The position numbers and the translations under genes were made by a program. DNA of 64,000 nt, from positions 104,820 through 168,819 of the forward strand of contig JAQTYI010000001.1 in assembly GCA_028688325.1 (NCBI GenBank), written 5' to 3'. This stretch comes from Candidatus Portnoybacteria bacterium. GTDB taxonomy: Bacteria; Patescibacteriota; Minisyncoccia; Portnoybacterales; GWB1-42-6. Shown here piece by piece: positions 32,484-48,355 of this stretch (within the stretch, counting starts at the first letter, position 1; each line of letters opens with the position of its first letter). The notes under the pieces were generated by a model that was not told the DNA's origin, made no database searches, and saw nothing but the letters and a program-made list of their open reading frames with translations.

Positions 32484-33692
32484 TTATTTAGCCGATCCGT
32501 TCTTGATCAAATTATTTGATCTTATTATTTCACTCAGCATTTGCGCGGCGACCGCGTGTCCCCTTTCGTCGTAGTGGCCGCCTTCATCGCCTGTTTCCAA
32601 TTTTGATTTGACATCCCGCACATCGTCCACGCGGTCGCAAATATTGGCATAAAATATATCCTTGCCGCCGGCAAACTTTCTCAATTTTTTGTCGAGCTCC
32701 GCACCCCGATATTTCCTCTTAGCCAGACAGAGATTCTCGCTGGCAAAAGCCGGAGGGAAATTAATCAGTATGAAGGGGATGTTTTTCTTTTTGGCCAACT
32801 CGCCAAATTCAGCCAAAGAATCAAAAGCGGCGTTCATGGTGTCGTCGGTAATACTATTTCCGGCATATATTAGATTCAATTTATAAGACACAAATCTCAT
32901 AAAATTTGAATTTTTCAATAAAAAAGAGCTGGTGCTCCGGCCGACCATCGGCAGCATCGGGACTATCTTATCGCCGACCAACAGCACATCAGTTTTTGTG
33001 CTGACGCTCTGGCCGCTGCCGTTGAATCCCAATTGGTATCTGACCGGCCCAAGGTCGTTATTGGTGAATTGAAGGATCAAAAGATCCGGCTGGAGCCCAA
33101 GGCCGATTTCTTTGAATAATTTCAATTCCTGATAAGTATTCAGCCCGCCGTCCGATAAATTTATGACCTGGACCGGGACTGCCTTTTCGGGCGCATCCTT
33201 AGTTAATAATCCTTCCAGCTGATTAGTGTATATGCTGCCGTTTTTCTGAGGACTCTCCAGGCCGGCGCCGGTCGTAAACGAGTCGCCTACGGCCAATATC
33301 CGGAAAGTGCCTTCTTTTTCAATCTTCGTATTTCTCAAATACCACTGCTCGGAAATTTTATTATCACTTAGATCATAGACAAGGCCGTCTTCTCTGTCGA
33401 TATACGCGTCGTTCTTAAAAAAATTTTCCAATATGCTGGCCTTCCAGCGAGTATGCTCGTCATATATGCTTTTCTCGTCAAAAAATAATCTGCTGGGTAT
33501 TTCCAGCGCCGAAAAAACAGCCGCCATGGCTACGATGGATATCGCGATATTTATTATGTATTTGCTCAAAAGATCCCTATTGATCGATTTCATTAAAATA
33601 TCGTGTAGATAAAAGGCGAAAGGGCGCTTTCCTGGCCCAGAACGATCAGCAAACCGGCTAAGGCCAGCATCACGATGATCGGCGCCAACCAC
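32484..33692 (-). CDS. Membrane-anchored SGNH/GDSL-family hydrolase
   Basis: GDSx block AVGDSFTTG. C-terminal DEGGHYDERGH (DxxH). An alternative start is the ATG at 33593 (MKSINRDLL... followed by a TM). Confidence 0.6.
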   Translation of the reverse strand: MVGADHRDAGLSRFADRSGPGKRPFAFYLHDILMKSINRDLLSKYIINIAISIVAMAAVFSALEIPSRLFFDEKSIYDEHTRWKASILENFFKNDAYIDREDGLVYDLSDNKISEQWYLRNTKIEKEGTFRILAVGDSFTTGAGLESPQKNGSIYTNQLEGLLTKDAPEKAVPVQVINLSDGGLNTYQELKLFKEIGLGLQPDLLILQFTNNDLGPVRYQLGFNGSGQSVSTKTDVLLVGDKIVPMLPMVGRSTSSFLLKNSNFMRFVSYKLNLIYAGNSITDDTMNAAFDSLAEFGELAKKKNIPFILINFPPAFASENLCLAKRKYRGAELDKKLRKFAGGKDIFYANICDRVDDVRDVKSKLETGDEGGHYDERGHAVAAQMLSEIIRSNNLIKNGSAK

Positions 33693-33769
33693 CAGGCCTT
33701 CCTAACTTTCAAAAAATCCCAGATTTCCGCCGACAATGATTTATTTTCTTGTTCCATAAAATTGATCTA

Positions 33770-35485
33770 TTATTGTTTTTTTATTAAAAAATTACCCATG
33801 ACCAAATAGTCTATCCCGGTATTCAAGAAGCACAAATAAGCGTCTTTCAGCGAAGAAACTATCGGCTCGCGATTTATATTGAAAGAAGTATTGACCAGAA
33901 TCGGCACTCCCGATATTTTACCAAACTTCTTGATTAAATCATAATACGGCGGATTATCGCTTCTCTTGACGATTTGCGGGCGGGCAGTGCCGTCAATGTG
34001 GCAAACCGCCGGAATTTTTGTTTGCCAATATTTTTTTATCGGACAGACCGCCAGCATATACTCGGCCGGGATAAAAAGCGCTTTGTCCAGCTTAAAATAT
34101 TCTCCGGCGTCTTCACGGCAGACGGCGGGAGCGAACGGCCGGAAATTTTCCCGATGCTTGACCCCCAGATTCAGGATATCTTTCATTTTCGGGTTCAGCG
34201 GATTGGCTAAAATGCTTCTGGCGCCCAGCGCCCGCGGCCCCCACTCTTCCCTGCCCTGAAACCAACCGATAATTTTGTCTTCGAATATCAACCGGGCGGT
34301 TTTTTCAACCAATTCTTTTTTATCGGCAAATTCATGATATGCCGCCCGATTCCGATCTAAAAATTCTTTGATTTCCTGATCGGAATATTCCGGCCCCAGA
34401 TAAGCATCGGGCAGCAGCCGGCGATTCCCATTGGCGAAGATTTGATGATAGGCGAAAAGTGCCGCCCCCAGGCTCGTTCCGCCATCGGCAGCATTGGGCT
34501 GTATCCAAACATTTTTAAATTTGGTTTTTTCCGGGATCTTTCCGTTTAAAACACTGTTTAACGCCACCCCGCCGGCCAAAATGATATTTTTGCATTTATA
34601 AATATCGTATAGATGGTTCAATATTTTGAAAACCGCCTCTTCCGTTATCATCTGCAGGGCCGCAGCGATGTCTTGGTGCCGCTTTTCTATCGAAGAATCT
34701 TTTTCCCGAACCGGGCCACCAAGCAACGAACACAATTTAGACGATGGCATCCGGCCGGCATAATGATACTCAAAATAGCTCATGTCGATCCTGAAACTTC
34801 CATCTTCCTTGATATCTATCGCTCCCCTTAATTTTTCATAATAAATATTTTTCAGCTTGTCTTTTTCCCCGTATGCGCCAAGCCCCATAACCTTATATTC
34901 CGAGTCATTGACCGGAAAGCCCAGATAAGCGGTAATTGCCGAATAGAACAGCCCCAAAGAGTGCGGAAAATTTATCTGACCGGCAAGCTTTATTCTGTCC
35001 TTATCGCCAAATCCGTAAGCGGTCGTCGCCCACTCACCAGCTCCGTCAACGGTCAAGATCGCCGCCTTTTCAAAAGGGCTACAGAAAAAAGAACCGGCCG
35101 CGTGCGCCTGATGGTGCTCAACGAACAAAACGCTTTTTTTATATCCTAATTTTTTTCTGACCGCTTTCATTATCCGCAATCTTTCGCCCAGCCATACCGG
35201 AATAACCGCTAAAAACCGGCGCCAGCCCCGAGGAAAGGTCTCTATGAACTGACAAAGAAGTCTTTCAAATTTCAGTAAGGGCTTTTCATAAAAGACGATG
35301 AAATCGATTTCATCGATCAAAATTCCCTGGCTGGACAGACAATAATCGATCGCTCCGGAGGGAAAAGAATTGTCGTGCTTTTTCCGCGTCAATCGCTCCT
35401 CTTGGATGGCCGCCACCACTCGGCCGTCTTTTAGCAGGGCGGCGGAAGAATCATGAAAAAAACAGCTGATGCCTAAAATATACAT
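33770..35485 (-). CDS. NodU/CmcH/TobZ-family carbamoyltransferase
   Basis: N-terminus MYILGISCFFHDSSAALL is the family signature. 571 aa, the same size as TobZ. Confidence 0.75.
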   Translation of the reverse strand: MYILGISCFFHDSSAALLKDGRVVAAIQEERLTRKKHDNSFPSGAIDYCLSSQGILIDEIDFIVFYEKPLLKFERLLCQFIETFPRGWRRFLAVIPVWLGERLRIMKAVRKKLGYKKSVLFVEHHQAHAAGSFFCSPFEKAAILTVDGAGEWATTAYGFGDKDRIKLAGQINFPHSLGLFYSAITAYLGFPVNDSEYKVMGLGAYGEKDKLKNIYYEKLRGAIDIKEDGSFRIDMSYFEYHYAGRMPSSKLCSLLGGPVREKDSSIEKRHQDIAAALQMITEEAVFKILNHLYDIYKCKNIILAGGVALNSVLNGKIPEKTKFKNVWIQPNAADGGTSLGAALFAYHQIFANGNRRLLPDAYLGPEYSDQEIKEFLDRNRAAYHEFADKKELVEKTARLIFEDKIIGWFQGREEWGPRALGARSILANPLNPKMKDILNLGVKHRENFRPFAPAVCREDAGEYFKLDKALFIPAEYMLAVCPIKKYWQTKIPAVCHIDGTARPQIVKRSDNPPYYDLIKKFGKISGVPILVNTSFNINREPIVSSLKDAYLCFLNTGIDYLVMGNFLIKKQ

Positions 35486-35491
35486 AAAAAA

Positions 35492-35743
35492 TTAAAATTG
35501 CCTGAAAAAATTATCTTTTTTTTCGCCAACTATGCTCCGTTTTTCCCAATAAGTTTTTGCTTTTTTATCAATATCTAAACTTAGAAATTTTTTGCCCATT
35601 ATTTTTGCCGCCAAAAAAACCGAACCCGCGCCAAAAAAATAGACCAGCGCCAACAAAAATAAATTTAAAAAAATTCCGATATTTTCGGAGAAAACGACGA
35701 ATCCCTTTCTAAGACCTTTAAAAAAATGCGTCCTTGCGGTCAT
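35492..35743 (-). CDS. Small membrane hypothetical
   Basis: 83-aa ORF with one TM. It overlaps the GT2 start by 25 nt. Confidence 0.25.
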   Translation of the reverse strand: MTARTHFFKGLRKGFVVFSENIGIFLNLFLLALVYFFGAGSVFLAAKIMGKKFLSLDIDKKAKTYWEKRSIVGEKKDNFFRQF

Positions 35744-36599
35744 AAATTGATCTACTGATCAAACGGCCCAAAAAATAGAGTGCCGCGACCAAAGCCCCCA
35801 CCAAAAAAATCCCCGGATAGCCGGCCCTCCGGAACAACAAAAAGTAAAAAAAGGCGGTGAAAAAACAAAAAGCCGAAGTAAAACCGAGTTTTTGACCGAT
35901 CTTTTCCGGCTTAACGCCCCGGAAAGATATCTCCGCCCTTTTTTTGAACAGAAAGAATATGTTTCCCAGTCCGTCGCGCCATTTTCTCAATTTGACTTCG
36001 CCGATCCGGTCAGCATAGCCGATCGGCACTTCGGCGAATTTGAGACCCTCGGCCAGCAGCGCCTCCATTTTTATCTCTTCAGACAGCGCCATCCCCTTGC
36101 TTTTGAGCATGAACGAAAAAAGAACTTTCCGCTTAAACACCCACATGCCCGACTGGGAATCTTTCATCCTTTTTGCCGTCATCAAAAAAAACAGAGCGGT
36201 CAGTATCGCGTTGCCGAATTTATTGATCGTCTTCATTGAGCCGCTTTTTTTCAAAGGGAATCTGGCTCCGGAAATAAAATCCAGATCCCGGTCAAAGAAA
36301 ACCGCCAGAAGCCCCTTAACCTCTTCAATGGGATAAGAATTATCGCCGTCCATCGTCACAATAACATCTCCGCCGGCCGCCCGGAAACCGGCCTGATAAG
36401 CCGCTCCATATCCCCGCCGCGCCTCAAAAACGACTTTGGCGCCCAATCCTTCGGCCACCTTCGCGCTTTTATCGGTTGAGCGGTTGTCGACCACTATAAT
36501 TTCGTCGAAAAAATCCGGCCGGCGTTCCAGGATTTTTTTTATTCCTTCTTCTTCGTTATAGCAAGGAATGACCAACGAGATCTTTCTATCGCAAAACAT
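35718..36599 (-). CDS. Family 2 glycosyltransferase (Dpm1/GtrB-like, C-terminal TM anchor)
   Basis: VIPCYNEE, VVDNRSTD, TMDGD (DxD). Confidence 0.7.
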   Translation of the reverse strand: MFCDRKISLVIPCYNEEEGIKKILERRPDFFDEIIVVDNRSTDKSAKVAEGLGAKVVFEARRGYGAAYQAGFRAAGGDVIVTMDGDNSYPIEEVKGLLAVFFDRDLDFISGARFPLKKSGSMKTINKFGNAILTALFFLMTAKRMKDSQSGMWVFKRKVLFSFMLKSKGMALSEEIKMEALLAEGLKFAEVPIGYADRIGEVKLRKWRDGLGNIFFLFKKRAEISFRGVKPEKIGQKLGFTSAFCFFTAFFYFLLFRRAGYPGIFLVGALVAALYFLGRLISRSIYDRKDAFF

Positions 36600-36607: not shown

Positions 36608-38548
36608 TTATTTAACTTTCATCTTATACACGGATAAGAGCCCTTGAGTGAAAAGCAATTCTTTTTTTTCCAGATTATCCCGCAAAAAACGGCAACCCCG
36701 GTCGGCGAACAAAGGATCAGAGCAGAGGCGGTCGCCGATATAAACCAAGCACTCATTTTTTTTCACTTCCCGCAAAAAGAGATGCTCCGTTTCGTCGTTC
36801 ACTAAAGAAAGAGAGGCGGTTTGCCGGCGATTATCCTTGAAATAATCGCTGGTAACCACCATATGCTGGCTGGTTATTATCAAGCACCCGTTGGGAATTC
36901 TACCGATCGCCATCCAGTAATCTTGGGGGGGATAAATCAAAGAACGGTCGCCTTTCTTGTCCGCCCGGGCATCTTGGAAGATAACGCCGGGAAAATAAAC
37001 CGATGAAATCTGCTCCCGAGAGACCATCCTGCCGGAAAAGTAAGAGAGGGCTCCGCCGGGCTTAGAAAAAGGAAAATAAGAAATAATATTGAAAGACGCG
37101 GCGGCCAAAAAGACAAGCAGCAAGTTCAATGCCAAAAATCGCCGTCCTTTCATCGGATTGAAAGAATAAAATCCCCAGCCGGCGATTATCGCCATCGGCA
37201 GATGGAACATCAGCGAGCGGCGATAGTAATCCCCCGTCAAAGCGCCGGTGCCGCTGATATTGCCGTCAAAAAGCATGCAATAAACCAGAAAATAAGCGCC
37301 AAAAAATCCCCAGGGCAGCCAGTGTTCTTTTTCTTTCCAATAGGAAAAAAGCAGCGCCGCGGCCGCCAGAAAAACCAAAGAAACCAAAAGATCATAATGC
37401 CAGATCCCGCTTCCCAGGGGCGACAGATTGAAAAATTGCAGAAAAAACGCCCAAGCCGGTAAGGCCGCCGTCTTTAACGACAACGCAAGAAAACCGATTT
37501 TTCCTCCTTGATAAGTGCTGTAAGGATTATTGAACAGGAGCCAATGCAGCACCGGCAACTGCAAAATGATAAAAAACAAGGCAAAAGACGCCACCATAAA
37601 AAGCCCTTTGAAATCCGGCCGGCCGGACAACAAAGACAAAAACCATGACTTGATTCGCGGCCAATTGAAAACCAGCAGGAAAAACAGGAAAAAAGGCACC
37701 AGAACATAACTTTCCTGCCTTATATAAATGGCGTAGGACAAGCTGGCCAGCCAAGCCAGCCAGACGGCCGGCCGGCCGTTTTTTTGCGCCAGGATGAAAA
37801 GCAGCAGTGCCAGCCCCGCGAAAAAAAGACCCGCCGGGCGCGCCTCGCCGCTCTGCGAGTTGATGATATTGAGCGGAATCAAAGAAAAAACCAGCGCGGC
37901 ATAGAGCCCCGCTTCTTCTTTTTTGAAGACAAGGTATGCGATGAGGAATGCCAGCAGTATCGTCAAGCTGCTCAGGATCGCTGAGATAACTGAAGCGTTC
38001 AAACTGTGTATCCCGAATACCAGATGAGCCAAAGCAATGAGGAAAGGAAAACCGGGCGGCGCCAAAACCTGCTCAAACAGCTGGCAATCAGCATGGGTTC
38101 CTAGCGCACAAGATTTAACGAACTGGCCGTGCAGGACCCAAAGATGGGCCGATTCTTGCGCCACATAGCCGTCGGTATGCGGCCCCAGCCAATACTGGGC
38201 GTTTCTCACCCAAAAACCATATAAAAAAATCACCAGCAAAAGCAGCCAGATTTTTTTATCTATTTTTTTCACTTCTTCCCAAGTGCGCCGGGCGTTTATG
38301 GCAACTAGAAAAACCAGCAGCGAAAAATGCGCCAACATGAAATAAAAAAGCCAACTTTGGAAGATTTTATAACCGAACATAAAGGGTATTAAACTCCAGA
38401 ACAAAGCCCTGGGCTCAAAGCCGGAGAATGCCCCCGCAATTGCGTGGTTAAGGCATAAAAGGGCCCTGTATTTTGTTTTCACTCGAACAATATGCCCCTG
38501 GCGCATTGTCCTCGCTATCCAAAATAAAAAACTCCCCGGCTTAAACAA
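36608..38548 (-). CDS. Large polytopic membrane protein, GT-C (ArnT/PMT-like) glycosyltransferase candidate
   Basis: 646 aa with more than 12 TM segments. It is paired with a GtrB-like GT2. There is no sequence-level proof. Confidence 0.35.
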   Translation of the reverse strand: MFKPGSFLFWIARTMRQGHIVRVKTKYRALLCLNHAIAGAFSGFEPRALFWSLIPFMFGYKIFQSWLFYFMLAHFSLLVFLVAINARRTWEEVKKIDKKIWLLLLVIFLYGFWVRNAQYWLGPHTDGYVAQESAHLWVLHGQFVKSCALGTHADCQLFEQVLAPPGFPFLIALAHLVFGIHSLNASVISAILSSLTILLAFLIAYLVFKKEEAGLYAALVFSLIPLNIINSQSGEARPAGLFFAGLALLLFILAQKNGRPAVWLAWLASLSYAIYIRQESYVLVPFFLFFLLVFNWPRIKSWFLSLLSGRPDFKGLFMVASFALFFIILQLPVLHWLLFNNPYSTYQGGKIGFLALSLKTAALPAWAFFLQFFNLSPLGSGIWHYDLLVSLVFLAAAALLFSYWKEKEHWLPWGFFGAYFLVYCMLFDGNISGTGALTGDYYRRSLMFHLPMAIIAGWGFYSFNPMKGRRFLALNLLLVFLAAASFNIISYFPFSKPGGALSYFSGRMVSREQISSVYFPGVIFQDARADKKGDRSLIYPPQDYWMAIGRIPNGCLIITSQHMVVTSDYFKDNRRQTASLSLVNDETEHLFLREVKKNECLVYIGDRLCSDPLFADRGCRFLRDNLEKKELLFTQGLLSVYKMKVK

Positions 38549-39485
38549 AATTCAAAAAATACGCGGCTAATTGCTCGTTGTTGCGCCATTCGAAGATTTT
38601 TTTAGCTCCCTTGAAAACCGAAAAATGCTCCCTGCCAAAAACTATCTTGTTGCCGCCAGCAATCCCCTTTTTCACAGAGAGCAAAGCCGCGCCGTCCCTT
38701 TCTTTTTCTCCGAATTCCGGATAACTAGCCCTGAGATATCTCGCCCGCTCGTAAAAAAGCCCTCCCCGGCCCGCCTTTCCGTCGAATAAAAACCCTTGCC
38801 GCCTGTCCCAAGAATTATAAATATTCTCGCCGACCGGATCTAAAAAGATCAGCAACGGTCTTTTCAGGAGGCCGACCAGCTCCCGATAAAATTCCGGCGA
38901 ATCTTTTTTGACGCAAGCCATGATCTTTTTATGGTAAGCCAGGGTGCTCTTGCAGGAAAAGGAACAGGGCAGATGGAAAGAGAGATAATGATTGGAAATG
39001 CCGTTCAAAAAACTGTTCATCAAAAAATCAATCTTCGGCGGGATCTCTTTAAAAATAGGGCTCTGCGCGGCGGTGACCGAATGCGTCACATTTTCGATGT
39101 AGCGGTCGACACAGCAAGCCGGATAGCCCAAAAGCCGGCTGAATTCCTTGACTTCTTTCAGCGCCTGGCCGAAGTCTTTTTTTTCTATGATGATTTTGAA
39201 AGACGGATCGACCCTCTTGGCTTTCTTGGCCGATTTCGCGTCAAGCGAAAAATAGATGTTATGTCTGCCCAGCAATTTTTTGTCGCTGACAGCCATCTTC
39301 AGCCCCCATTTTTTGCACACCTCCCGATAAAGCGCCAGGTCTTCCTCCTTGCTGATCTCTCCCCGAAAAACTTTTTTCAATCCGTTCTTGACGGCGATGA
39401 GATCCACCGAAGAGAGCAGCATATCCCCTCCCCAGAAGCCCCTAACGCTCTCGCCCGGCCAGAATGTTTTTTCTTTTTTTGCCAT
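38541..39485 (-). CDS. Hypothetical Cys-motif protein (LGYPACC motif)
   Basis: 314 aa, embedded in the rSAM array. Motifs GYPACCVDRY and HLPCSFSCK. Confidence 0.4.
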   Translation of the reverse strand: MAKKEKTFWPGESVRGFWGGDMLLSSVDLIAVKNGLKKVFRGEISKEEDLALYREVCKKWGLKMAVSDKKLLGRHNIYFSLDAKSAKKAKRVDPSFKIIIEKKDFGQALKEVKEFSRLLGYPACCVDRYIENVTHSVTAAQSPIFKEIPPKIDFLMNSFLNGISNHYLSFHLPCSFSCKSTLAYHKKIMACVKKDSPEFYRELVGLLKRPLLIFLDPVGENIYNSWDRRQGFLFDGKAGRGGLFYERARYLRASYPEFGEKERDGAALLSVKKGIAGGNKIVFGREHFSVFKGAKKIFEWRNNEQLAAYFLNFV

Positions 39486-39486: not shown

Positions 39487-40383
39487 CTATTTCTTTACCG
39501 GCTTAAACTCGCTCCATCCGAAAATCGCCGGATATTCCTTCCAAGGACCCTCGCACCGGCTAAAATACTTGCAGGAACGGCATTTGGCCGCCTTTTCTTT
39601 GCCGCTGTTGCGGCGATAATCGCCGTAATCGGCCACTGTGAAATTAGAGTCGTAGATGCTGGTCTTGGGCATGATATCTTCGGCCACGCATTGTTCATAT
39701 CCCCTCAAAAAACAGAACGGAACGGCTTCGGCGGTGACTCTTTTGCCGGCCTTGAGGCCGATCTCAAGGCCCTTTTTCAGATACGGCATTATCTCGCTTT
39801 TTTTAGGCACAAGCCACTTTTCGTTCTCCTTGGCCGAGCCCAGGATATGCACGAACGCGAATTGGAACTGGTCCACTCCCAAATCCACCAAAACCTTTGC
39901 CAGTTCCGGCAAAAATTTATAATTGCTGCTGGTGATAACGGAATTGGTCAAAACGAATTGGTTTAATTTTTTCAGGTTCTTGATGCCCCGCGTCGTTTGC
40001 TCAAAGCTCCCTTTGGCCGCCGTCAGAGAGTCATGGATCTTCGCATTGTGGCCATGAAGCGACGGGCCAAATTGCGTGGCTCCGGCCCTGATGGCCCGAA
40101 CGCAAAAATCAGGATACGCGAAAATCCGCCCGTTGCTCTGGATCTGAATTTCTTCAAAGCCGATCTTTTTGGCCGCCGCGATCAATTCGAGAAAATTAGT
40201 GTGTAAACTCGGCTCGCCGCCGGTGAAGACCACTTCCCTTTTTCCCGCCGCAAAAGCTTCTTGCAGCGAATCGACCACTTCCTTTTTGCTTTTGGACGGA
40301 AGGGTTTCCCGTTTCCTGCCTTGCACGCAAAAAACGCAGTGGTTGTTGCAGTTAAAGCCAACTTTTATGTCCACTCTTTCCAT
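39487..40383 (-). CDS. Radical SAM enzyme, paralog 7
   Basis: CNNHCVFC, GGEPSL, SNGRIF, AAKGSF, C-terminal CRSCKYFSRCEG. Confidence 0.8.
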   Translation of the reverse strand: MERVDIKVGFNCNNHCVFCVQGRKRETLPSKSKKEVVDSLQEAFAAGKREVVFTGGEPSLHTNFLELIAAAKKIGFEEIQIQSNGRIFAYPDFCVRAIRAGATQFGPSLHGHNAKIHDSLTAAKGSFEQTTRGIKNLKKLNQFVLTNSVITSSNYKFLPELAKVLVDLGVDQFQFAFVHILGSAKENEKWLVPKKSEIMPYLKKGLEIGLKAGKRVTAEAVPFCFLRGYEQCVAEDIMPKTSIYDSNFTVADYGDYRRNSGKEKAAKCRSCKYFSRCEGPWKEYPAIFGWSEFKPVKK

Positions 40384-40405: not shown

Positions 40406-40431
40406 ATACCGCGGCCCGACAGCCGCGGTAT
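40406..40431 (-). terminator. GC-rich hairpin plus U-run downstream of the 73-aa ORF
   Basis: ataccgcgg-cccgacag-ccgcggtat. On the minus strand it is followed by cuauuuuuag. Confidence 0.45.
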
Positions 40432-40469: not shown

Positions 40470-40691
40470 CTATTTCACTTCGTCTATCAATTTTACGATT
40501 TTGTCCTTGGTCCCGGGAATTTCTTCGTAAGGAAAATTGTTGATAAAAAGAAATGTCTCCAGTTCCTTTACCTGATCTCCCTGTTTGTCAAAAATGGTGA
40601 AGGTCGCCAAAAACGGCTCGCCTTTTTTCATTTTTTTGACTTTGGCCGTGAAGCTTTTATACATATCGTTGCCCGATTCTTTTTTCTTCAT
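40470..40691 (-). CDS. Small 73-aa protein with own promoter and terminator (candidate precursor or recognition element)
   Basis: MKKKESGNDMYKSFTAKVKKMKKGEPFLATFTIFDKQGDQVKELETFLFINNFPYEEIPGTKDKIVKLIDEVK. It has no Cys. Confidence 0.4.
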   Translation of the reverse strand: MKKKESGNDMYKSFTAKVKKMKKGEPFLATFTIFDKQGDQVKELETFLFINNFPYEEIPGTKDKIVKLIDEVK

Positions 40692-40724: not shown

Positions 40725-40752
40725 ATTATACAGCTTAGAAAATTTATTTCAA
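40725..40752 (-). promoter_or_regulatory. Sigma70-like promoter for the 73-aa ORF
   Basis: On the minus strand: TTGAAA-N16-TATAAT, ending about 33 nt upstream of the ATG. It overlaps the rSAM paralog 8 stop. Confidence 0.4.
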
Positions 40753-41751
40753 CAGAGAATCCCTTTCCGCAAAAAAGATCCTAAAATCGTCGATTTTTTT
40801 CCCCTTCACGGGCTTCAGCTCCCCGAAGCCGTAAAAATCCGCGTAGCCCTCCCTGATGCCGTAACAGATATTGTCGTAGCGGCATCCGGCGCATCCTTTA
40901 TCCTTGCGGTCATGGGCGTTTTTGGGCTCGATCGTGATGACAAAATTGGGGTTATCAATGACCGTTTTTTTCTGGACCTTCACCCAGATATTATATTTAT
41001 TCGCTTCGCCGAGCACGCAAAACGGCAGATGCTGGACGGAAATTTTAGTTTTACCGGAATTGGCTTGCAGCGCTTTTTTTATATATGGCACGGCGTCTGT
41101 CATTTTCGGCACAAGATTGCGGTGCCGCATCAGTTCTCCGGACATAATAGGAAAGCTCAAGGTGACGCTCGATTGCCCCAGCTTATCTCTCAATAAGCGC
41201 ACTACTTCGGGCAAATATTTATAGTTGCGGGCGGTAATGACAATATTTATGCTAACTCTCTGACCCAAATTACCCAAATTGATGATCCCTTGCTTAGCCC
41301 TGGTGAAAGAACCCGGAGAACAGGTCATTGAATCATATAGTTTCGCGTTATGGCCGTGAAAAGAAATGAAAAAATCATCGGCGCCGGCCTGAACCGTTTT
41401 TTCGGCAAAAGACAAATCGGAAAATTTCTGGCCGTTCGATTCCACGGCGATGGTCTCAAAACCGATGCTTTTGGCGTATTTTATTATCTCCAGGAAATCT
41501 TTTCTAACCGCCGCTTCGCCGCCCGTTATCCTGATTTTATGCGACAATTTCTTGAATTGATCCAGCCGGTTTTTTATTTCCGAAAGAGCCGGCTCTTTCC
41601 GGCCGCCGGGCTTGTTGGCGCTCACGGAACAAAACAGACAATTTTGGTTGCATCTGCCGGTTATATATATTTCCGGAACAAACAAGGCGCCTTTGTGATT
41701 TTCGGCTCTTGATTCGGATCGACTGTTGCCCGGTAATTGTTCTTTTTTCAT
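40744..41751 (-). CDS. Radical SAM enzyme, paralog 8
   Basis: CNQNCLFC, GGEAAV, SNGQKF, C-terminal CAGCRYDNICYG...GELKPV. Confidence 0.8.
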   Translation of the reverse strand: MKKEQLPGNSRSESRAENHKGALFVPEIYITGRCNQNCLFCSVSANKPGGRKEPALSEIKNRLDQFKKLSHKIRITGGEAAVRKDFLEIIKYAKSIGFETIAVESNGQKFSDLSFAEKTVQAGADDFFISFHGHNAKLYDSMTCSPGSFTRAKQGIINLGNLGQRVSINIVITARNYKYLPEVVRLLRDKLGQSSVTLSFPIMSGELMRHRNLVPKMTDAVPYIKKALQANSGKTKISVQHLPFCVLGEANKYNIWVKVQKKTVIDNPNFVITIEPKNAHDRKDKGCAGCRYDNICYGIREGYADFYGFGELKPVKGKKIDDFRIFFAERDSLLK

Positions 41752-41778: not shown

Positions 41779-42696
41779 TTATTTTAAAATCGCTTTCAAT
41801 TTTCCCGTCCCGAATTCCTCCAGATCGCTTTTGGCAAAACCATCGCAGAAAGAATCGGCCTTGCACTTTTTACATATGGCCGCCTTGCTTTTCAACCGAT
41901 AGATCGGCAGATCTTTTATTTTTGTTTTTAATTTTCTTTCCGGCTGGCAGTATTTTCCATGGTCCGGCGGCAAGCAATTATTGATGATGTTGTTTTTTAT
42001 TTCTCCAAAAACACAAAAAGGAATTTCCATAAAACGAACCGTCTTGCCGTGTTTCCGGGAGTATTCCGCCGCTTTCTTTACATAAGGCGGCAGATCCTTT
42101 ATCGGGATATAATATTCGTGGTTGTTCCCCTCCACCTTTTTTCTGAAGGGTATAGACAAATAATAATCAACAATTGCCAATTCGTCCATTAATCTTAACC
42201 AATCCGCTAAATCGTTCTTATTTTGCTCCATGATCAAATTGGATACCTGTATCTCGATTGCCGGTGCAAGTTTTTTTATGGTGCGGAGCCCCTTTAAGAC
42301 CGAATCGAAGCTCCCTTTTCTTCTGGTGATCAAATCGTGTATCTCTTTATTTGACCCGTAAACGGGGACCCTTAATTTATCGACGCCGGTTTTTATTAAT
42401 TTTTTTAAAAAATCCTCTTCCCCCAGTTTGTTGCCGTGGCTGGAAAGCTGCACGAATCCAAATCCGATATTTTTCGCATATTTTATCAGCCTTAAGATCC
42501 CGCCGTACTCGATCGGATCCGCTCCTGATATTTCCAGCCGCCCCAGGCCCTTTTGTTTGAATTCAAGCAAACACTTGAAAACATTGATCTCTTGCTTTTC
42601 CAGTTCGGTTCGGCTGGCTTTCGGCACCCTTCGACAAAAAACACAATGGTTTTCGCATGAGGGATTGATGATTACGCCCCCTGTTTCTTTTTTCAT
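41779..42696 (-). CDS. Radical SAM enzyme, paralog 9
   Basis: CENHCVFC, C-terminal CKKCKADSFCDG. Confidence 0.75.
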   Translation of the reverse strand: MKKETGGVIINPSCENHCVFCRRVPKASRTELEKQEINVFKCLLEFKQKGLGRLEISGADPIEYGGILRLIKYAKNIGFGFVQLSSHGNKLGEEDFLKKLIKTGVDKLRVPVYGSNKEIHDLITRRKGSFDSVLKGLRTIKKLAPAIEIQVSNLIMEQNKNDLADWLRLMDELAIVDYYLSIPFRKKVEGNNHEYYIPIKDLPPYVKKAAEYSRKHGKTVRFMEIPFCVFGEIKNNIINNCLPPDHGKYCQPERKLKTKIKDLPIYRLKSKAAICKKCKADSFCDGFAKSDLEEFGTGKLKAILK

Positions 42697-42703: not shown

Positions 42704-44044
42704 TTAAATCAGCGGATCTCGGGCCGACCATCGGCCGCCGGCCAATTTGGCCGCGTGCCGGCTGCCGCCGCGGCACTTATATCTGAAGTCGCAATTATCG
42801 CACCCTTTGGGCAAAAATCCCAGCGAGCGCATTTTTTTCATGAAGGGATGGCGCCAGGCCTTTAAAATTTCCAAAGGGCCGGCCAGCTTCTTGTCGATAA
42901 AATAATGCGGCTTGACAAATCCCCGCGGGTCGACCACCAGGCGGCTGTGGCCTTCATCAAATAAAGCGCCCGAGCTTATCGCGTTCATTTTGTTCCGGTC
43001 CTCTATCACACAGAACGGAACGGAATTGGCAATGGAAATTATTTTATCCGTCCGGTTTCTCAACTGAAAAATTTTATCAACCAGAGCACTTAAATCCGCT
43101 CGGCTGAGCTCGGCTTGCTTGCTAATGAACGCCGGCCGGTAAAATTCCCACTCGTCGATCGGCAAAGCTAAAATAAATTCGGCCATTTTGTCAAAATTTA
43201 AAATGGCATCGCGGCTGACCACGCTCCCCGCCCTCACCTTTGGAACTCCGGCTTTTTTCAATGAAGTTGCCGCTTTTGTCTTTTTTTCCAAAGCATCAGG
43301 AAAGCCGCAAAGTTTCTCCTCGATTTTATTATCACAACTTTCTATCGGTATCAAAATATTATCGACTAAGCCGGTCAGCTTTTTAATTGTTCGCTCATCC
43401 AATAAAGAACCGTTGGTATTAAGCCGCGTTTCCAGCTTCTTTTTCTTGGCGTAACGCAAAAGTTCAAAAATATCCGCTCTGAGCATGGGCTCACCGCCCG
43501 TAAACCTGATAATTTTTACGCCCGCTTTAGCAACGCTGTCAATAATTTTTTTCACATATTGCGTACTGAAAGGCCTGACATTCCTGCCTTGTTTGGCAAA
43601 AGATATTTTATTGAAACAAAATTGACAATTGAAATTACACTTGGGTTCAACTTCAACCATAACCTCAACAGGCAGATCTTTGATCGGCTTAATCTCTTGA
43701 TTGCCGTATTTTTTAAAATAACCGGCTGGGAAACCCGCGCAATCCTTAAAATATTTACACTGACGGCAATCGACTGTTTTTTTTCTCCTACGAGCTCCTT
43801 TTTCCGGCAAAATGTGGTCCCGTGATCTTTCATTGACAACGCAAAAAGGAAACCCTTTCAGCCAGACCTCCAGATGGTCTTCTTTATCCAAAGCATGATA
43901 AACCGATGGAATGATCGCGGAAAATTGCGGCAAAACGGCCGCCCGCTTGTTCACCGTTATTTCCAGCTTGCCGCCCCTCTTGGCGGCGATATCGGCCGCC
44001 GCCGGGATTTTTGCATGGTTGGATTTATCCGTTATGAATATCAT
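42704..44044 (-). CDS. Radical SAM enzyme, paralog 10, with extra N-terminal copy of the Cys-rich C-terminal domain (fusion)
   Basis: N-terminal FPFCVV...CRQCKYFKDCAG...YGNQEIKPI, then the core CNFNCQFC, GGEPML, TNGSLL, and a C-terminal CDNCDFRYKCRGG. Confidence 0.75.
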   Translation of the reverse strand: MIFITDKSNHAKIPAAADIAAKRGGKLEITVNKRAAVLPQFSAIIPSVYHALDKEDHLEVWLKGFPFCVVNERSRDHILPEKGARRRKKTVDCRQCKYFKDCAGFPAGYFKKYGNQEIKPIKDLPVEVMVEVEPKCNFNCQFCFNKISFAKQGRNVRPFSTQYVKKIIDSVAKAGVKIIRFTGGEPMLRADIFELLRYAKKKKLETRLNTNGSLLDERTIKKLTGLVDNILIPIESCDNKIEEKLCGFPDALEKKTKAATSLKKAGVPKVRAGSVVSRDAILNFDKMAEFILALPIDEWEFYRPAFISKQAELSRADLSALVDKIFQLRNRTDKIISIANSVPFCVIEDRNKMNAISSGALFDEGHSRLVVDPRGFVKPHYFIDKKLAGPLEILKAWRHPFMKKMRSLGFLPKGCDNCDFRYKCRGGSRHAAKLAGGRWSARDPLI

Positions 44045-45036
44045 TTTTCCGTTCCGGTTAAATTTTTATCACGGTCTTGCGCCAATTTTTTATAAACCGC
44101 CGCGCAATAATCGCATCTGTAACATTCGCTCTTGCAGCTTAATATTTTTTTATGGAAAGCCGCGGGTAATTTGTCAGTGGTGATGCCCAAAGGAGATTTT
44201 TTGCTGGTAAAAACGGCGCTAACATCCATCGGTTCGCCAAAAACATAATACCTGATCATTTTTTCCAACATATCGACGGGCGTGTCCCGGCCGACCAATT
44301 TGAAGAACTTCGCCTTGTAGTACGGCAGCATCTCCCTGGTAACAAACGGCGATCTTAAAACATTGGCGGGATCGTTGGCAAAAAAAGAATTGCAGAGGCT
44401 CTTTATTTTTGCCAGGGGCTGGCTCTGATCGGAAAAGTGCGCCAGAGTGATGAAAGTGCCGTGGTCGCCCGAGAGCGAACAGCGAGGCGCGCAACCTTCA
44501 TTGAGCATCACATCGGCGTCCACGCCGATTGAATCAGCGTAATCTATGATCCTATTGACCAACTTATAGTCGCGGTTGATATCTCTGTCTATTACAAGAT
44601 ATTTTATTTCCGGGAACCTGGACTTGATGCTGTGCAAATGCTGAGGCGTACCAACCCGATAAGTGACACTCACGCCTTTCTGGAAATTCCCAAAATTCTT
44701 ATGCGCGAACAAAACCATGGAGGCAAAGATCAGGACGGTATGCTTGCTACTATAAGGCGTCAGATCGACCGCGTCGTAATCAAAACCTCCTTGAAGATCG
44801 TGCGGAGTTGCGTTGAACAAAATGTTGAATCTTTTATTATTTTTAAGACACCACTTATATACCCTGTCGAAAAAATCTTCAGAAGGAGAAAGCAGCACCC
44901 GGCCGGAGGGAGCATTTTGCCAACCCAAATATACTCCACCTATGAATTTCTTATATTTTTCCAAGATGCGGAAATATCCCTCGTCGTCCTTGCCTATAGG
45001 CATCAAAAAACGGTTATTCAAAAAATTTTGAGTCAT
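44041..45036 (-). CDS. Hypothetical protein with C-terminal CxxxCxxCxxC
   Basis: 331 aa. NEGCAPRCSLSG and CKSECYRCDYC. A weak resemblance to U32-type proteins is not established. Confidence 0.35.
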   Translation of the reverse strand: MTQNFLNNRFLMPIGKDDEGYFRILEKYKKFIGGVYLGWQNAPSGRVLLSPSEDFFDRVYKWCLKNNKRFNILFNATPHDLQGGFDYDAVDLTPYSSKHTVLIFASMVLFAHKNFGNFQKGVSVTYRVGTPQHLHSIKSRFPEIKYLVIDRDINRDYKLVNRIIDYADSIGVDADVMLNEGCAPRCSLSGDHGTFITLAHFSDQSQPLAKIKSLCNSFFANDPANVLRSPFVTREMLPYYKAKFFKLVGRDTPVDMLEKMIRYYVFGEPMDVSAVFTSKKSPLGITTDKLPAAFHKKILSCKSECYRCDYCAAVYKKLAQDRDKNLTGTEK

Positions 45037-45041: not shown

Positions 45042-45989
45042 TTAATTTCCGATACGGCTGAAATTATTTTTTATGGTTTTTGGCGGCCAACAGAACATCG
45101 GATGAAAGCAGGCCTCGTCGCAACAAGGGCATTGTTCATGCTGCCCCAAGTCCTTTATTTTTTTAACATAAACGCCTTTGGCGACATTTCCTATTTCCCG
45201 GGTGCTGTTAAAACAGGGATACACCGACCCATCCGGCCTAACATCGGCAAAAATGTTTCCGGCCAGGCATTTATCCATCAGCGGCATCTTGCCTGTTTTT
45301 AAATATTCGCCTTGCGCCTTTAAAAATGGATCATCCGAGCCGCAATTTTTTATGAAATCGACAACCAGCGCCTTTTGCTTGCCAGAAAATTCAAGCCGCT
45401 TTTCATGATTATAATGGTAAACGCTGTTATAAAACGGCCTGAAAGAAAAAGCACTGCCGGTTTGGACCGCGATTTTTTTAATATGATTAAGAGAGCGTCG
45501 ATTGCAATTTAGATGTGTTAAAGTGGTTAAAATAACCGTCTGTAGCCGAGGCGCCGCTGCTCGACAAAGCTTTAAAGTCAGGAGCGCAGAATTATAGCTG
45601 TCAATGCCTCTGATCTTTTTATTAGTCACCCCGTCTCCTTCCAAAGAAACGGCCAAGCGCAAGGTTTTTATCTGTTGATTTTTATTCAATTTTTTAAATA
45701 ATTCAGCCGCTTTTAAGGGAGAAGTGCCGTTGGTCGTTAAAAGAAACTTCGTAACCTTGGGCATGGAGCGCAAAATAGTTTTAATAATCTGCTCTATGTC
45801 TTTTCTCAAAAATGCCTCTCCTCCGGAAATAAAAAATTCTTCCACTTCTTGAAATTCCGGTTGGGAAAATAATTTTTTATATTGAGAAGCGCTAACTTCT
45901 CGACCCGTTGCTTGTTCCTTCCAAAGATGACAAATCAAACAACGACTGTTGCATTTTCTGGTAACTCTAATTCCCAAGCTTTTTAACAT
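45042..45989 (-). CDS. Radical SAM enzyme, paralog 11
   Basis: CNSRCLIC, GGEAFL, TNGTSP. C-terminal Cys residues CPCCDEAC. Confidence 0.75.
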   Translation of the reverse strand: MLKSLGIRVTRKCNSRCLICHLWKEQATGREVSASQYKKLFSQPEFQEVEEFFISGGEAFLRKDIEQIIKTILRSMPKVTKFLLTTNGTSPLKAAELFKKLNKNQQIKTLRLAVSLEGDGVTNKKIRGIDSYNSALLTLKLCRAAAPRLQTVILTTLTHLNCNRRSLNHIKKIAVQTGSAFSFRPFYNSVYHYNHEKRLEFSGKQKALVVDFIKNCGSDDPFLKAQGEYLKTGKMPLMDKCLAGNIFADVRPDGSVYPCFNSTREIGNVAKGVYVKKIKDLGQHEQCPCCDEACFHPMFCWPPKTIKNNFSRIGN

Positions 45990-46038: not shown

Positions 46039-47262
46039 TTAACCGAAATTCTCGTTGATAGAACCAATCACCGTTCCCAGCGCTTTATTTAAAATATTTT
46101 TTCTAATATTAAGTGGCGGCTGCACAAACAGCATGTTATCGGAATAATTTTTAAAAAGCAGCACGCCCTTTTTTAAACAATCATTAAAAATCTTTCTGGC
46201 GTCATTGTTGTTAAAAAATTCTATCGCGATAATCAGCCCCTTTCCTCTAATCTCTTTGACTGCCTTGTTTTTACTCAAACTTTTTTTTAAAAAACCGAGG
46301 GTCAAGCGTCCCAGATCACAGCTGTTTTTTGCCAGTTTTTCCTCTTCAATGATGTTAATATTTTCCAGGGCAACGGCGCACGCCAAAGGAGACCAGGCGA
46401 AAGTCGACATATAAACAAAGTTACCGATAAGTTCTTTTCTGGAAACCACCGCCGATATTGGAGCGTAACCGCTGCCAAGCCCCTTGGCCAAACAAACCAT
46501 ATCCGGACAAATACTGAAATGCTCGAAAGAAAACATTTTGCCAGTCCGGCCAAAACCCGTCAAAACCTCGTCAAAGATAAGTAAGGTTCCGTATCGCCGG
46601 CACATTTTAAGAACTTCTTTGAAAAAACCATCCGGAAAATTAAAACAGCCGGCGCTGGTCACGACTCCCTCCGCTACAAATCCCGCGCAGCCCCCCCGCT
46701 TAAGCTCCTTTTCTATGGACTTTAAAGTTTTTTTAAAATCAGCGGGAAGGGCGCGGCCTTTGTTCAAAGAAGACGGATGTTTGATAGTGGCAAAGCGCGC
46801 TAATATCGGCGTAAATTCTTTGGTCAGCCGGTTCTCCCCTCCCAAAGACATAGCGGCGAAAGTATGGCCGTGGTAGGCACCCTTAAAACTCAAAAATTTG
46901 CTCCGCCCTGTTTGGCGCGCGGCGATTTTCATGGCGATTTCCACCGCTTCGCTCCCGGTCGTGGCGCGCAAAACCGAATCAAAACCCGCCGGGAACAGAC
47001 CTAAAATCTTTTTGGCCAATAAGATCGATTCGCTGGTTTCCTGTAATTGCGGCGAAAATATGTTTTTTTCGGCCTGCCGGCGCATCACTTCCTTCATCCT
47101 ATGACTGTTGTACCCCACGGCCACCACGCCGGCGCTGGCCGACAGATCAACATATTTTTTATTGTTTTCATCGTAAAGATAAACATCGTCCGTCCGGACG
47201 ATTTTCAAGCCGGGCAGATTGCAAGGATAAAGATATGATTCTTTTTTCGGTTTCGTTTTCAT
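46039..47262 (-). CDS. Class III PLP-dependent aminotransferase
   Basis: DEVLTGFGRTG motif. 407 aa. Confidence 0.75.
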   Translation of the reverse strand: MKTKPKKESYLYPCNLPGLKIVRTDDVYLYDENNKKYVDLSASAGVVAVGYNSHRMKEVMRRQAEKNIFSPQLQETSESILLAKKILGLFPAGFDSVLRATTGSEAVEIAMKIAARQTGRSKFLSFKGAYHGHTFAAMSLGGENRLTKEFTPILARFATIKHPSSLNKGRALPADFKKTLKSIEKELKRGGCAGFVAEGVVTSAGCFNFPDGFFKEVLKMCRRYGTLLIFDEVLTGFGRTGKMFSFEHFSICPDMVCLAKGLGSGYAPISAVVSRKELIGNFVYMSTFAWSPLACAVALENINIIEEEKLAKNSCDLGRLTLGFLKKSLSKNKAVKEIRGKGLIIAIEFFNNNDARKIFNDCLKKGVLLFKNYSDNMLFVQPPLNIRKNILNKALGTVIGSINENFG

Positions 47263-47272
47263 TAAAATAAGT

Positions 47273-48355
47273 TTACCGACGCTTTTTATTCTTTAAGACC
47301 AGCGGCCGGATAATATCTTCGTATTTTTTTACCCAATCGTTGATGGAAAAATTATTTTCGGCGTATCGCCTGACTCCCCGCCGGTTGATATTCCCTATTT
47401 TTTTTATCGCCCGGGCCATTGCTTCTATATCCCCGTCGGGAACTATATAGCCGCTAACCTTGTCTTCCACAACTTCCCTTACCGCCGCCCGGTCAAAAGC
47501 AATGACGGGCGCGCCACAAGCCATTGATTCCACCAAAACTAAGCCGAAGGGCTCATCCCATTGGATCGGAAAAAGGGTCGCTGCGGCTTTTTGAAAAAGC
47601 TTAATCTTTGTCTTAAAATCCACTTCTCCCGAATAAACAATGTTTTTATTGTCAATATGCGGTTTTATGAGATCGTTGAAATAAGAAAGGTTGGACGGGC
47701 TGATGCCGCCGGCGATGATCAGTTTCCTGCCCGCCCTTTTGGCGGCCTCGATCGCCAAATGAACTCCTTTTTCCGGGCAAATCCTGCCGATAAACAGCAA
47801 ATGTTCTTTTTTTGAAAAAGACAAGGGAAAATCCTTAAAATCAAAAGATGGATAAAACGGTTCCAGATAATTGAGTCCCGGCATCGCGCTTTTTATGAAA
47901 TCGGACATCGGCAAATAATGAACATTTTTTATCCCTGATATGGATTTTTTTAAATAAGGAAAAATTTCTTTGTGGGGATAATTTATTTGAATTACTATCG
48001 GTATTTCTGACTGCCCGGCAAAGGGCAGAATTTTATAAAAAACATGGTCATTGAACTGAATCAGGTCAAAATTTTTCTGCCGGCCGGAACTGAAAAAATC
48101 GGCCAGCGCCACGGTATCGTAAAAATTATTGACTCTTTCTTCCAGCTGACCCCTTTCCAATTTTGCAATAGTGGAAAATGGAGAAATTTTCTCAACTTTT
48201 GCTCCTTTTATCTTTGACCCGGGCGCGGCAAAAAGAACGATCTTGTGGCCTCTTTTTACCAGCTCTTTTATCAAATAAAATGCCGGCTGTTCTATTCCGC
48301 CGGTTTTTGGCGGCGGCACGATATTTCTTGAAGACATAAAAAAAGCGATTTTCAT
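47273..48355 (-). CDS. GT-B glycosyltransferase (GT4-like)
   Basis: EPFGLVLVESMACGAPVI motif. Confidence 0.7.
   Translation of the reverse strand: MKIAFFMSSRNIVPPPKTGGIEQPAFYLIKELVKRGHKIVLFAAPGSKIKGAKVEKISPFSTIAKLERGQLEERVNNFYDTVALADFFSSGRQKNFDLIQFNDHVFYKILPFAGQSEIPIVIQINYPHKEIFPYLKKSISGIKNVHYLPMSDFIKSAMPGLNYLEPFYPSFDFKDFPLSFSKKEHLLFIGRICPEKGVHLAIEAAKRAGRKLIIAGGISPSNLSYFNDLIKPHIDNKNIVYSGEVDFKTKIKLFQKAAATLFPIQWDEPFGLVLVESMACGAPVIAFDRAAVREVVEDKVSGYIVPDGDIEAMARAIKKIGNINRRGVRRYAENNFSINDWVKKYEDIIRPLVLKNKKRR

Follow-up and report, generated by a model that had tools for sequence, protein, structure and literature searches.

The window, a stretch of 64,000 nucleotides from a Candidatus Portnoybacteria genome (assembly GCA_028688325.1, contig JAQTYI010000001.1), carries a block of about 30 genes at 24867–52827, all of them read in a single direction from the minus strand. 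Coding ends in this block overlap or nearly abut, with gaps of −26 to 248 bp, mostly below 60 bp. Thirteen radical SAM (rSAM) genes, including hxsB, lie within 24867–51514 and are interspersed with genes for glycosyltransferases (GTs), a carbamoyltransferase, an aminotransferase, and other tailoring proteins. Judged from their sequence, these genes make up an enlarged type-4 His-Xaa-Ser (HXS) system: HxsD, HxsB, and HxsA4 all exceed their curated cut-offs. The tailoring genes are built into this system and probably do not form a separate aminoglycoside-like pathway. Haft and Basu reportedly predicted the HXS system in 2011. Gene identities were assigned through Pfam and NCBIfam profile scans, with bit scores compared to the curated cut-offs; promoter and terminator sites are consensus pattern matches only.

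The HXS core and its precursor

HxsD is encoded at 51748–52290 (TIGR03976, 60.6 bits; cut-off, 50), followed by the rSAM/SPASM maturase HxsB at 50042–51514 (TIGR03978, 541.5 bits; cut-off, 370), which carries a CX3CX2C motif at residue 106, and by the 132-aa precursor HxsA4 at 49499–49897 (NF038313, 92.2 bits; cut-off, 55). The precursor consists of a conserved leader, a hydrophobic segment, a cysteine, and then 25 uninterrupted His-Xaa-Ser repeats reaching to the C terminus. A Pfam scan finds no domain in HxsA4, which is without a recognizable peptidoglycan-binding domain. The leader motif LPxIKKxIKxFLxSEEGKIxKK is strongly conserved and is seen across more than 40 of the loci used for comparison. 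These loci carry L numbers, and L010 to L089 are 80 metagenome loci surveyed around HxsB with a 10-kb flank. Among these 80, the number of His-Xaa-Ser units per array varies between 4 and 149 (the array at L011:5344 onward among them), and some loci contain two hxsA genes or additional HxsB paralogues. A promoter-like site with 11 of 12 consensus matches and an extended TG lies just 5' of hxsA at 49971–50000 on the minus strand, and a terminator-like hairpin with a 13-bp stem and a T run follows 33 bp past the stop codon at 49436–49466 on the same strand. A promoter in front and a terminator behind are a common layout for precursor genes.

Three membrane proteins accompany the core. The first gene of the block, that of Ig166 (52327–52827), encodes one hydrophobic segment at the N terminus, of the membrane or signal type, and an Ig/FN3-like Ig_Rha78A_N domain (Pfam, 3e-08). 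Its homologue stands immediately 5' of hxsD in L010, L011, L023, L031, L033, and L095. A second membrane-anchored Ig_Rha78A_N protein, Ig170, is encoded at 27085–27597 (Pfam, 9.3e-10), and Ig-like genes are further carried by L005 and, at its end, by L090. The third protein, mem408 (25811–27037), has seven membrane segments and resembles A24 prepilin peptidases, with a weak Peptidase_A24 match of 0.0073. Its motifs D..KIxN and W[AP]AGDAKLF (WAAGDAKLF in the window) are conserved across eight loci; the protein recurs in the HXS loci L038, L045, L059, L084, and L086, and its homologue in L092 bears Arc_PepC. HXS components are thus found at both ends of the block with the tailoring genes in between. 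The tailoring set can be called bracketed by HXS parts because mem408 and the HxsC-like rSAM_b lie at the far end of the block, 21 kb from HxsB and on the opposite side of the tailoring genes.

Radical SAM paralogues and tailoring genes

Besides HxsB, the block encodes eight HxsC-like rSAM paralogues and four other rSAM proteins (rSAM_f, rSAM_j, rSAM_k, and rSAM_l). The eight form one paralogous family with a common C-terminal CX2CX5C motif, which fits an auxiliary cluster of the twitch/SPASM kind. Their best model is either HxsC or HxsC4, in every case below the cut-off, with best scores of 154.3 against 267.9 bits for HxsC (TIGR03977) and 164.5 against 500 bits for HxsC4 (NF038332). The closest paralogue to canonical HxsC is rSAM_b (27638–28588), which gives the 154.3-bit match over positions 29 to 289 of the 292 in the model; its homologue comes directly after HxsD/HxsB in L084 and L086. 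The HxsC4-like rSAM_a (24867–25814), the final gene of the block, gives the 164.5-bit match and has a 73% identical counterpart in L003, where pilM is the next gene. Upstream of rSAM_b follow the HxsC-like rSAM_c (28585–29460; 68% identity in L090) and rSAM_d (29477–30466; 70 to 72% in L003 and L090), the HxsC4-like rSAM_e (30470–31450; NF038332, 148.6 bits; 69% in L003 and L090), and the rSAM/SPASM protein rSAM_f (31460–32479; Radical_SAM, 7.5e-21; SPASM, 3e-07; 54% in L005).

A second group of rSAM genes stands beyond the GT2 and the GT-C. The HxsC4-like rSAM_g (39487–40383) scores 162 bits against a cut-off of 500 with NF038332 and is 76% identical to its counterparts in L003 and L090. Its upstream neighbor encodes sm73, a protein of 73 aa (40470–40691) with 68% identity in L003 and 53% in L090, and in both of these loci sm73 likewise adjoins rSAM_g on the upstream side. 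A promoter-like site with 11 of 12 matches (40725–40752) and a terminator-like hairpin with an 11-bp stem (40406–40431) accompany sm73, a layout like that of hxsA. The protein may serve as a second substrate or as a small partner. Next come two HxsC-like paralogues, rSAM_h (40744–41751), assigned by NCBIfam and the paralogy matrix, and rSAM_i (41779–42696), placed by the same matrix and with HxsC4 and HxsC as its best matches. The 446-aa rSAM_j (42704–44044) is NirJ2/PqqE-like in Pfam and NCBIfam and bears an N-terminal extension; its homologues come after hxsA in L012 and L013 and before sm73 in L090. The neighboring open reading frame (ORF) encodes a 331-aa protein with a C-terminal CX3CX2CX2C motif (44041–45036), which has no match in Pfam, NCBIfam, or the Protein Data Bank (PDB), and for which a single-sequence AlphaFold2 (AF2) model is unusable at a mean confidence (pLDDT) of 40; its GCAPRC motif may faintly recall U32-family proteins. 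The last two rSAM proteins are rSAM_k (45042–45989), with a Cys-rich C terminus (Radical_SAM, 1.1e-14; best solved relative, 5WGG at 8e-05), and rSAM_l (48373–49293), which weakly resembles the STM4011 family (Radical_SAM, 2.8e-12; NF038073, 69.6 bits against 200).

An earlier note, drawn from the letters of this stretch alone, had listed a carbamoyltransferase, a class III aminotransferase, a GT2, a GT-C-like protein, a GT4, and an SGNH hydrolase on the minus strand at 32484–48355. ORFs and profiles confirm all six with their motifs, interleaved with rSAM genes. Its list did not include HxsD, HxsB, and HxsA upstream (49499–52290), a DUF483 protein, and three small genes, which are present in the NCBI gene calls as DUF5989 (54 aa), sm83, and sm73; these calls also give shorter products for the SGNH ORF (369 aa) and for the GT-C ORF at 36608–38548 (590 aa). 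The membrane-anchored SGNH/GDSL hydrolase (32484–33593) scores 26.1 bits with Lipase_GDSL (cut-off, 23.6) and has a single N-terminal membrane segment and its GDS block at residue 103. Overlapping its ORF is the gene for the single-pass membrane protein DUF5989 (33593–33757; PF19451, 80.7 bits; cut-off, 27), presumably of the same family as SxtK. The TobZ/NodU-type O-carbamoyltransferase of 571 aa (33770–35485; N terminus, MYILGISCFFHDSSAALL) contains Carbam_trans_N (1e-82) and Carbam_trans_C (3e-68) and aligns over its full length to the solved TobZ, GdmN, and NovN-type (novobiocin) enzymes at 1e-81 to 6e-91, with TobZ at 2e-82. The cassette is opened by sm83, an 83-aa single-pass membrane protein (35492–35743); sm83 has no Pfam match even at an E value of 0.5, so that no SxtJ-like partner is detected.

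Two of the glycosyltransferases would form a pair of the polyprenyl-phosphate-dependent kind, joined by a third enzyme at the upstream end of the set. The GT2 (35718–36599; Glycos_transf_2, 1.2e-23) looks like a polyprenyl-phosphate sugar synthase and carries two membrane segments at its C terminus; its top NCBIfam models are AglJ (125.7 bits), a dolichyl-phosphate hexose transferase (105 bits), PpgS (75 bits), and an ArnC type (50 bits), all below the cut-off. The GT-C (36608–38380) belongs to the PMT_2 family (45 bits; cut-off, 26.1) and spans the membrane with at least nine segments. A PDB sequence search with it gave no match, and its homologues are 65% (L090), 55% (L091), 50% (L005), and 27% (L092) identical. 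The DUF483 protein encoded next to it (38541–39485; PF04467, 35.8 bits; cut-off, 25) is without a membrane segment, and its YPxCC and NHYLSFHxxCSxxC motifs are invariant in the alignment. An AF2 model of DUF483 from a four-sequence alignment reaches a pLDDT of 58, and neither Foldseek against the PDB at E ≤ 0.001 nor a PDB sequence search gave a relative. The GT4 (47273–48355; Glycos_transf_1, 3.5e-31) shows one marginal hydrophobic stretch and no convincing membrane segment; its best NCBIfam models, Agl16, GlgA, and SdgA (52.9 bits; cut-off, 800), all stay far below their cut-offs. Adjacent to the GT4 is the class III (omega-type) aminotransferase (46039–47262; Aminotran_3, 8e-88), with DEVLTGFGRTG at residue 231 followed by CLAKGLG. 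Its best NCBIfam model is BioA, with 263 bits against a cut-off of 405, and its subfamily is rare: of the 1.84 billion representatives of 50%-identity clusters, just four reach 42% identity or above. Housekeeping roles, which would have spoken against the reading of the earlier note, were considered for the carbamoyltransferase and the aminotransferase and were set aside, with both enzymes well under every NCBIfam equivalog cut-off.

Comparative loci and genomic neighborhood

The block architecture is syntenic in a relative from the Parcubacteria (L095 and L003), with proteins 43 to 77% identical. The order there is Y1_Tnp, Ig, HxsD, HxsB, HxsA, sm73, rSAM_g, DUF483, GT9, PMT_2, and a B12-rSAM, followed by sm83, the carbamoyltransferase, DUF5989, four rSAM genes, mem408, and rSAM_a. 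This relative is without the aminotransferase, the GT4, rSAM_h to rSAM_l, and the 331-aa protein. L090 shows the series rSAM_j, sm73, rSAM_g, DUF483, PMT_2, sm83, carbamoyltransferase, DUF5989, and rSAM genes. In the distant L092 (assembly GCA_030634615.1, as L093), where HxsB is 34% identical, three DUF483 genes and PMT_2 are followed by hxsA 80 bp downstream of PMT_2; the opposite strand carries a GT4, an S8 peptidase, HxsB, HxsD, and an A24-like gene, and DUF5989 stands at the contig end. L091 combines DUF483 and PMT_2 with a DegT aminotransferase and a GT2, a trio like ArnB/ArnC/ArnT. Fusions of GT2 and rSAM domains of about 575 aa are present at L005:4285–6021, L006:979–2715, and L091:7805–9520, beside B12-binding rSAM genes and, in L005, also an amine oxidase.

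DUF483 homologues are rare, with four clusters found. DUF483 adjoins the GT-C and HxsC-like rSAM genes in L003, L090, L091, and L092 and occurs with rSAM genes only in L050 and L051. The carbamoyltransferase, on the other hand, has extremely numerous homologues, thousands at about 62% identity, the bulk of them in DPANN archaea; its seven closest homologues (70 to 100% identity) are the only ones in rSAM clusters of the candidate-phyla-radiation type. It adjoins DUF5989 in L003 to L007, L090, L094, and one further contig with a polysaccharide deacetylase gene. In L003, L005, L007, and L090, sm83 is directly 5' of the carbamoyltransferase, and an 83-aa gene is also present in the deacetylase contig. 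By gene content, the tailoring set is modular: DUF483 and the GT-C recur with HXS genes, and the carbamoyltransferase cassette accompanies HXS only in a small clade.

HxsB itself falls into more than 100 clusters at 50 to 91% identity, for the most part from Patescibacteria (Portnoy-, Falkow-, and Magasanikbacteria); in metagenomes, 591 stretches gave a match. A core of HxsD, HxsB, and HxsA is common to the 80 HxsB-anchored loci, usually with more rSAM genes after it. Other tailoring genes are occasional in HxsA4 loci: GT4 genes were seen twice, along with one class I/II aminotransferase and one methyltransferase. A scan of genome contigs with HxsB alone gave a single locus, L009 (CAYXNZ010000003.1), from a metagenome-assembled genome labeled Gammaproteobacteria, with HxsD, a 63% identical HxsB, and a 76% identical HxsA4-type precursor, just past which the contig ends. 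L009 could reflect mis-binning or the lateral transfer of a system of the candidate-phyla-radiation type.

Directly upstream of the block in the window is an IS200-like Y1 transposase-family gene (52884–53603, minus strand), of which L095 has a syntenic copy with 66% identity and L036 a weaker copy located a few kilobases upstream of hxsD; this gene may be a fixed neighbor and not a mobile insertion. It is preceded by a giant ORF (53623–63999, minus strand) of more than 3,458 aa that continues past the window end. Its domains are four of the Peptidase_S74 (endosialidase chaperone) family and one of the phage tail collar kind, with a linker rich in Thr and Pro at the C terminus. The protein resembles a tail-fibre-like surface protein, and a 30% identical homologue is found in L011 at the same place upstream of Ig166 and HxsD. 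On the other side of the block, a type IV pilus set (4769–14341, minus strand) encodes a prepilin peptidase, two pilins, PilC, PilT, PilB, PilO, and PilM. In L003, with its pilus genes at L003:18465–21713, the HXS block ends at pilM, whereas in the window the two are separated by genes for a tripartite tricarboxylate transporter and by a small number of others. Further genes are a stand-alone ketosynthase-domain protein of 688 aa (625–2691, minus strand) next to an HGSNAT-like membrane acyltransferase (2688–3836, minus strand) and, at 21554–24324 on the plus strand, a partial AMP-binding-like protein beside a 491-aa protein without a family. The ketosynthase, acyltransferase, and AMP-binding-like genes are unusual for a reduced genome of the candidate phyla radiation.

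Proposed product and known systems

Glycosylation of the HXS product is suggested because the GT-C and DUF483 are recurrently linked with HXS genes. The chances stand about even that the block makes an exported HxS-repeat protein that is glycosylated from a polyprenyl-phosphate sugar and carries amino or carbamoyl decorations. In the cytoplasm, HxsB and the HxsC-like rSAM proteins would alter the repeat region together with HxsD, possibly joined by the soluble DUF483 protein with its Cys/His motifs. The precursor would then be inserted into the membrane or exported, with the A24-like mem408 cutting off the leader at the membrane. The GT2 would charge polyprenyl phosphate with a sugar, and the GT-C would pass this sugar on outside the membrane, where the many serines in the HxS repeats would be the simplest recipients; we infer HxsA as the putative acceptor only from gene adjacency. 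The membrane-associated cassette of sm83, carbamoyltransferase, DUF5989, and SGNH hydrolase would add or edit carbamoyl or acyl groups on the glycan, and, solely in this organism, the aminotransferase would contribute an amino group and the GT4 one more sugar. The predicted end product is a glycosylated, rSAM-modified, His-rich repeat polymer at the cell surface, which by analogy may obstruct the entry of phage DNA. PADLOC 2023, which holds no HXS model, gave only generic rSAM similarity to viperins.

Several observations weigh against this proposal. All eight HxsC-like rSAM proteins stay short of the curated cut-offs for HxsC and HxsC4. A PDB sequence search with rSAM_g gives BlsE, a sugar-nucleoside enzyme, as the best solved relative (3e-17, over the core only), so that some of the rSAM proteins could act on sugars and not on the peptide. 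The aminotransferase and the GT4 are without conservation even in the closest relative and turn up again only in L010, a locus of the same organism. No flippase of the GtrA or ArnE/F type was recognized in the block by Pfam scans. The PMT_2 family is known to include lipid-modifying enzymes as well. The cassette also occurs apart from HXS genes: in L007, from the Nanoarchaeia, a 77-aa protein, the carbamoyltransferase, the SGNH hydrolase, and DUF5989 stand alone amid housekeeping genes; in L094, from the Woesearchaeota, the carbamoyltransferase and DUF5989 (L094:5043–7952) directly follow an OTCase-family gene with no HXS or rSAM genes present, a neighbor suggesting that carbamoyl phosphate may be supplied or used locally; and the deacetylase contig combines the cassette with PMT_2, a GT4, a GT2, the polysaccharide deacetylase, and rSAM genes, with no HXS genes within 6 kb. 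The 80 loci anchored on HxsB contain no homologue of the carbamoyltransferase, GT-C, SGNH hydrolase, or DUF5989, a weak negative, as the 10-kb flank misses a layout like that of the window.

Part of this evidence would suit a separate envelope-glycan, glycolipid, or wall-polymer pathway that shares an operon with the HXS genes only since both serve the envelope, an explanation close to the idea of the earlier note that we regard as the main and a serious rival, though less likely than the proposal. The PMT_2 lipid modifiers and the cassettes without HXS genes in DPANN archaea and in the deacetylase contig fit such a pathway, and the thousands of carbamoyltransferase homologues suggest a general conserved role; yet the tailoring genes are nested between HXS components instead of standing alongside them, DUF483 and the GT-C adjoin HxsC-like rSAM genes in all loci recovered via DUF483, hxsA directly follows the GT-C in the distant L092, and sister loci contain GT2::rSAM fusions. 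That the glycosylation targets another surface protein is improbable. Neither the two Ig-like proteins nor the type IV pilins nor the giant tail-fibre-like protein adjoins the GT-C and DUF483 as consistently as the HXS and rSAM genes do, and the pilus genes of the window are 10 kb away with genes of the opposite strand in between. For these candidates speak the recurrence of Ig_Rha78A_N proteins, in L005 also beside the GT-C and the carbamoyltransferase cassette, the contact of the block with pilM in L003 together with the pilus operon of the window, the position of the giant Peptidase_S74 protein upstream of the block and of its homologue in L011, and the established glycosylation of pilins by membrane transferases.

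The earlier note had likened the enzyme set to aminoglycoside or aminocyclitol pathways. A diffusible small molecule of this kind, made by sugar-acting rSAM proteins, the aminotransferase, the GTs, and the carbamoyltransferase, is very improbable. A TobZ-type carbamoyltransferase and a class III aminotransferase are indeed present, some aminoglycoside 6'-aminotransferases belong to class III, and the nearest solved relative of rSAM_g is the BlsE already mentioned, but the Pfam and NCBIfam scans of the roughly 30 genes give no cyclitol synthase (2-deoxy-scyllo-inosose or inositol-phosphate synthase), no DegT/DnrJ/EryC1 aminotransferase, and no nucleotide-sugar, efflux, or resistance gene. The GT-C, GT2, and SGNH hydrolase are embedded or anchored in the membrane with outward-facing domains, and a ribosomal precursor with dedicated maturases is encoded. 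Kinship of the rSAM proteins with BtrN, likewise proposed before, was not found: the matching models are HxsC, HxsC4, HxsB, and generic SPASM, and PDB searches with the two proteins tested, rSAM_g and rSAM_k, gave BlsE, SkfB, and 5WGG but not BtrN; what does agree with the twitch kind is the auxiliary-cluster motif CX2CX5C. The claim of a product that is not purely peptidic probably holds in so far as the glycosylation route recurs with rSAM genes in several divergent loci, although the repeat precursor HxsA4 puts a peptide at its center. The suggested symbiont-type host agrees with the placement of Candidatus Portnoybacteria in the candidate phyla radiation. Conservation of the gene context, which was also in question, is found as interleaved synteny in relatives but not as one conserved unit, with the aminotransferase and GT4 specific to the organism and the cassette alone elsewhere. 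A chance juxtaposition of unrelated operons is hardly credible given that the interleaving is repeated in loci whose shared proteins are only 27 to 77% identical and that the genes lie on one strand with overlapping or near-abutting ends, even if the modules occur separately elsewhere and promoter-like sites inside the block suggest sub-operons.

Returning to the glycosylated HxS-repeat protein, a broader form of the proposal is tentative and, on balance, doubtful. It envisages a new, secreted kind of ribosomal glycopolymer in candidate-phyla-radiation bacteria and some DPANN-like organisms. As many as a dozen rSAM proteins would cross-link its tens to more than 100 HxS units or alter them in other ways, and the GT-C would add aminated or carbamoylated sugars to the serines on the outside. 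The resulting envelope coat might gate the entry of phage DNA, as in E. coli, or else have metals or host surfaces as its binding partners. A more speculative variant keeps the chemistry on the peptide: rSAM proteins would oxidize the serines to aldehydes, which the aminotransferase would convert to amines and the carbamoyltransferase would cap. The antiphage role of HXS was shown only in 2026, its chemistry is unsolved, and a change of +8 Da is unexplained. The window, together with the HxsB clusters and the metagenome matches, shows a large and far more elaborate HXS lineage in organisms of the candidate phyla radiation, in which rSAM paralogues are numerous, arrays very long, and genes for glycosylation built in. 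If the proposal is true, the product would be a first case of a ribosomal repeat protein that undergoes both rSAM modification and glycosylation by a GT-C; the very widespread carbamoyltransferase/DUF5989/SGNH cassette and DUF483 would gain a function; and a view would open on envelope building and defense in ultra-small symbionts. For annotation, such blocks belong under HXS systems, similar to systems for peptides that are made by the ribosome and modified after translation (RiPP), and not under aminoglycoside-like clusters. The literature gave nothing specific on rSAM/RiPP clusters of the candidate phyla radiation or on DUF5989.

Among known systems, the pairing of a GT2 bearing C-terminal helices with a PMT_2 GT-C is shared with ArnB/ArnC/ArnT of lipid A aminoarabinose modification and with Ppm1/PMT of protein O-mannosylation. 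The block also contains an aminotransferase like the Arn pathway, and in L091 this enzyme is of the DegT type as in Arn. The aminotransferase of the window, in contrast, is class III, no flippase, formyltransferase, or dehydrogenase gene is found in the block, and the GT2 and GT-C fall far short of every curated equivalog or match none. The carbamoyltransferase is a full-length two-domain enzyme like TobZ, NodU, GdmN, NovN, and SxtI. Saxitoxin clusters contain the small ORFs sxtJ and sxtK beside sxtI (PMC2885083), and the carbamoyltransferase of the window is likewise flanked by small ORFs; its cassette differs in being a conserved set of four genes with a membrane-anchored SGNH hydrolase and in occurring chiefly among DPANN archaea and bacteria of the candidate phyla radiation. 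The proximity of the GT4 to a short serine-containing tandem-repeat protein recalls SdgA and SdgB, GT4 enzymes that act on the Ser-Asp repeats of staphylococcal adhesins, though the SdgA score (52.9 bits against 800) reflects the generic GT4 C-terminal domain and the repeats are of another type.

The closest counterpart is the HXS system of Escherichia coli, in which HxsA, once matured by HxsB, HxsC, and HxsD, is an antiphage effector that is exported and blocks the entry of phage DNA (Li et al., Nat Commun 2026, PMC13128918). The window shares with it HxsB, HxsD, and the HxS-repeat protein HxsA, all over their cut-offs, as well as HxsC-like rSAM proteins and a precursor whose N-terminal region is followed by an export-type hydrophobic segment. 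The described systems consist of a compact four-gene set in the order D-B-C-A in more than 99% of cases, 99.7% of them in Pseudomonadota (PMC13128918). The window instead contains about 30 genes in the order D-B-A, followed by about 26 further genes, with the HxsC-like gene displaced and present in eight copies besides four other rSAM genes. Its HxsA4 has 25 repeats compared to five and no peptidoglycan-binding domain, which the E. coli type possesses, and the block adds the A24-like protein, the Ig-like proteins, DUF483, three GTs, the carbamoyltransferase cassette, and the aminotransferase. The host is a bacterium of the candidate phyla radiation and not one of the Pseudomonadota; the figure of 99.7% is at odds with the many HxsB clusters from the candidate phyla radiation, a lineage of HXS systems that seems to have been overlooked.

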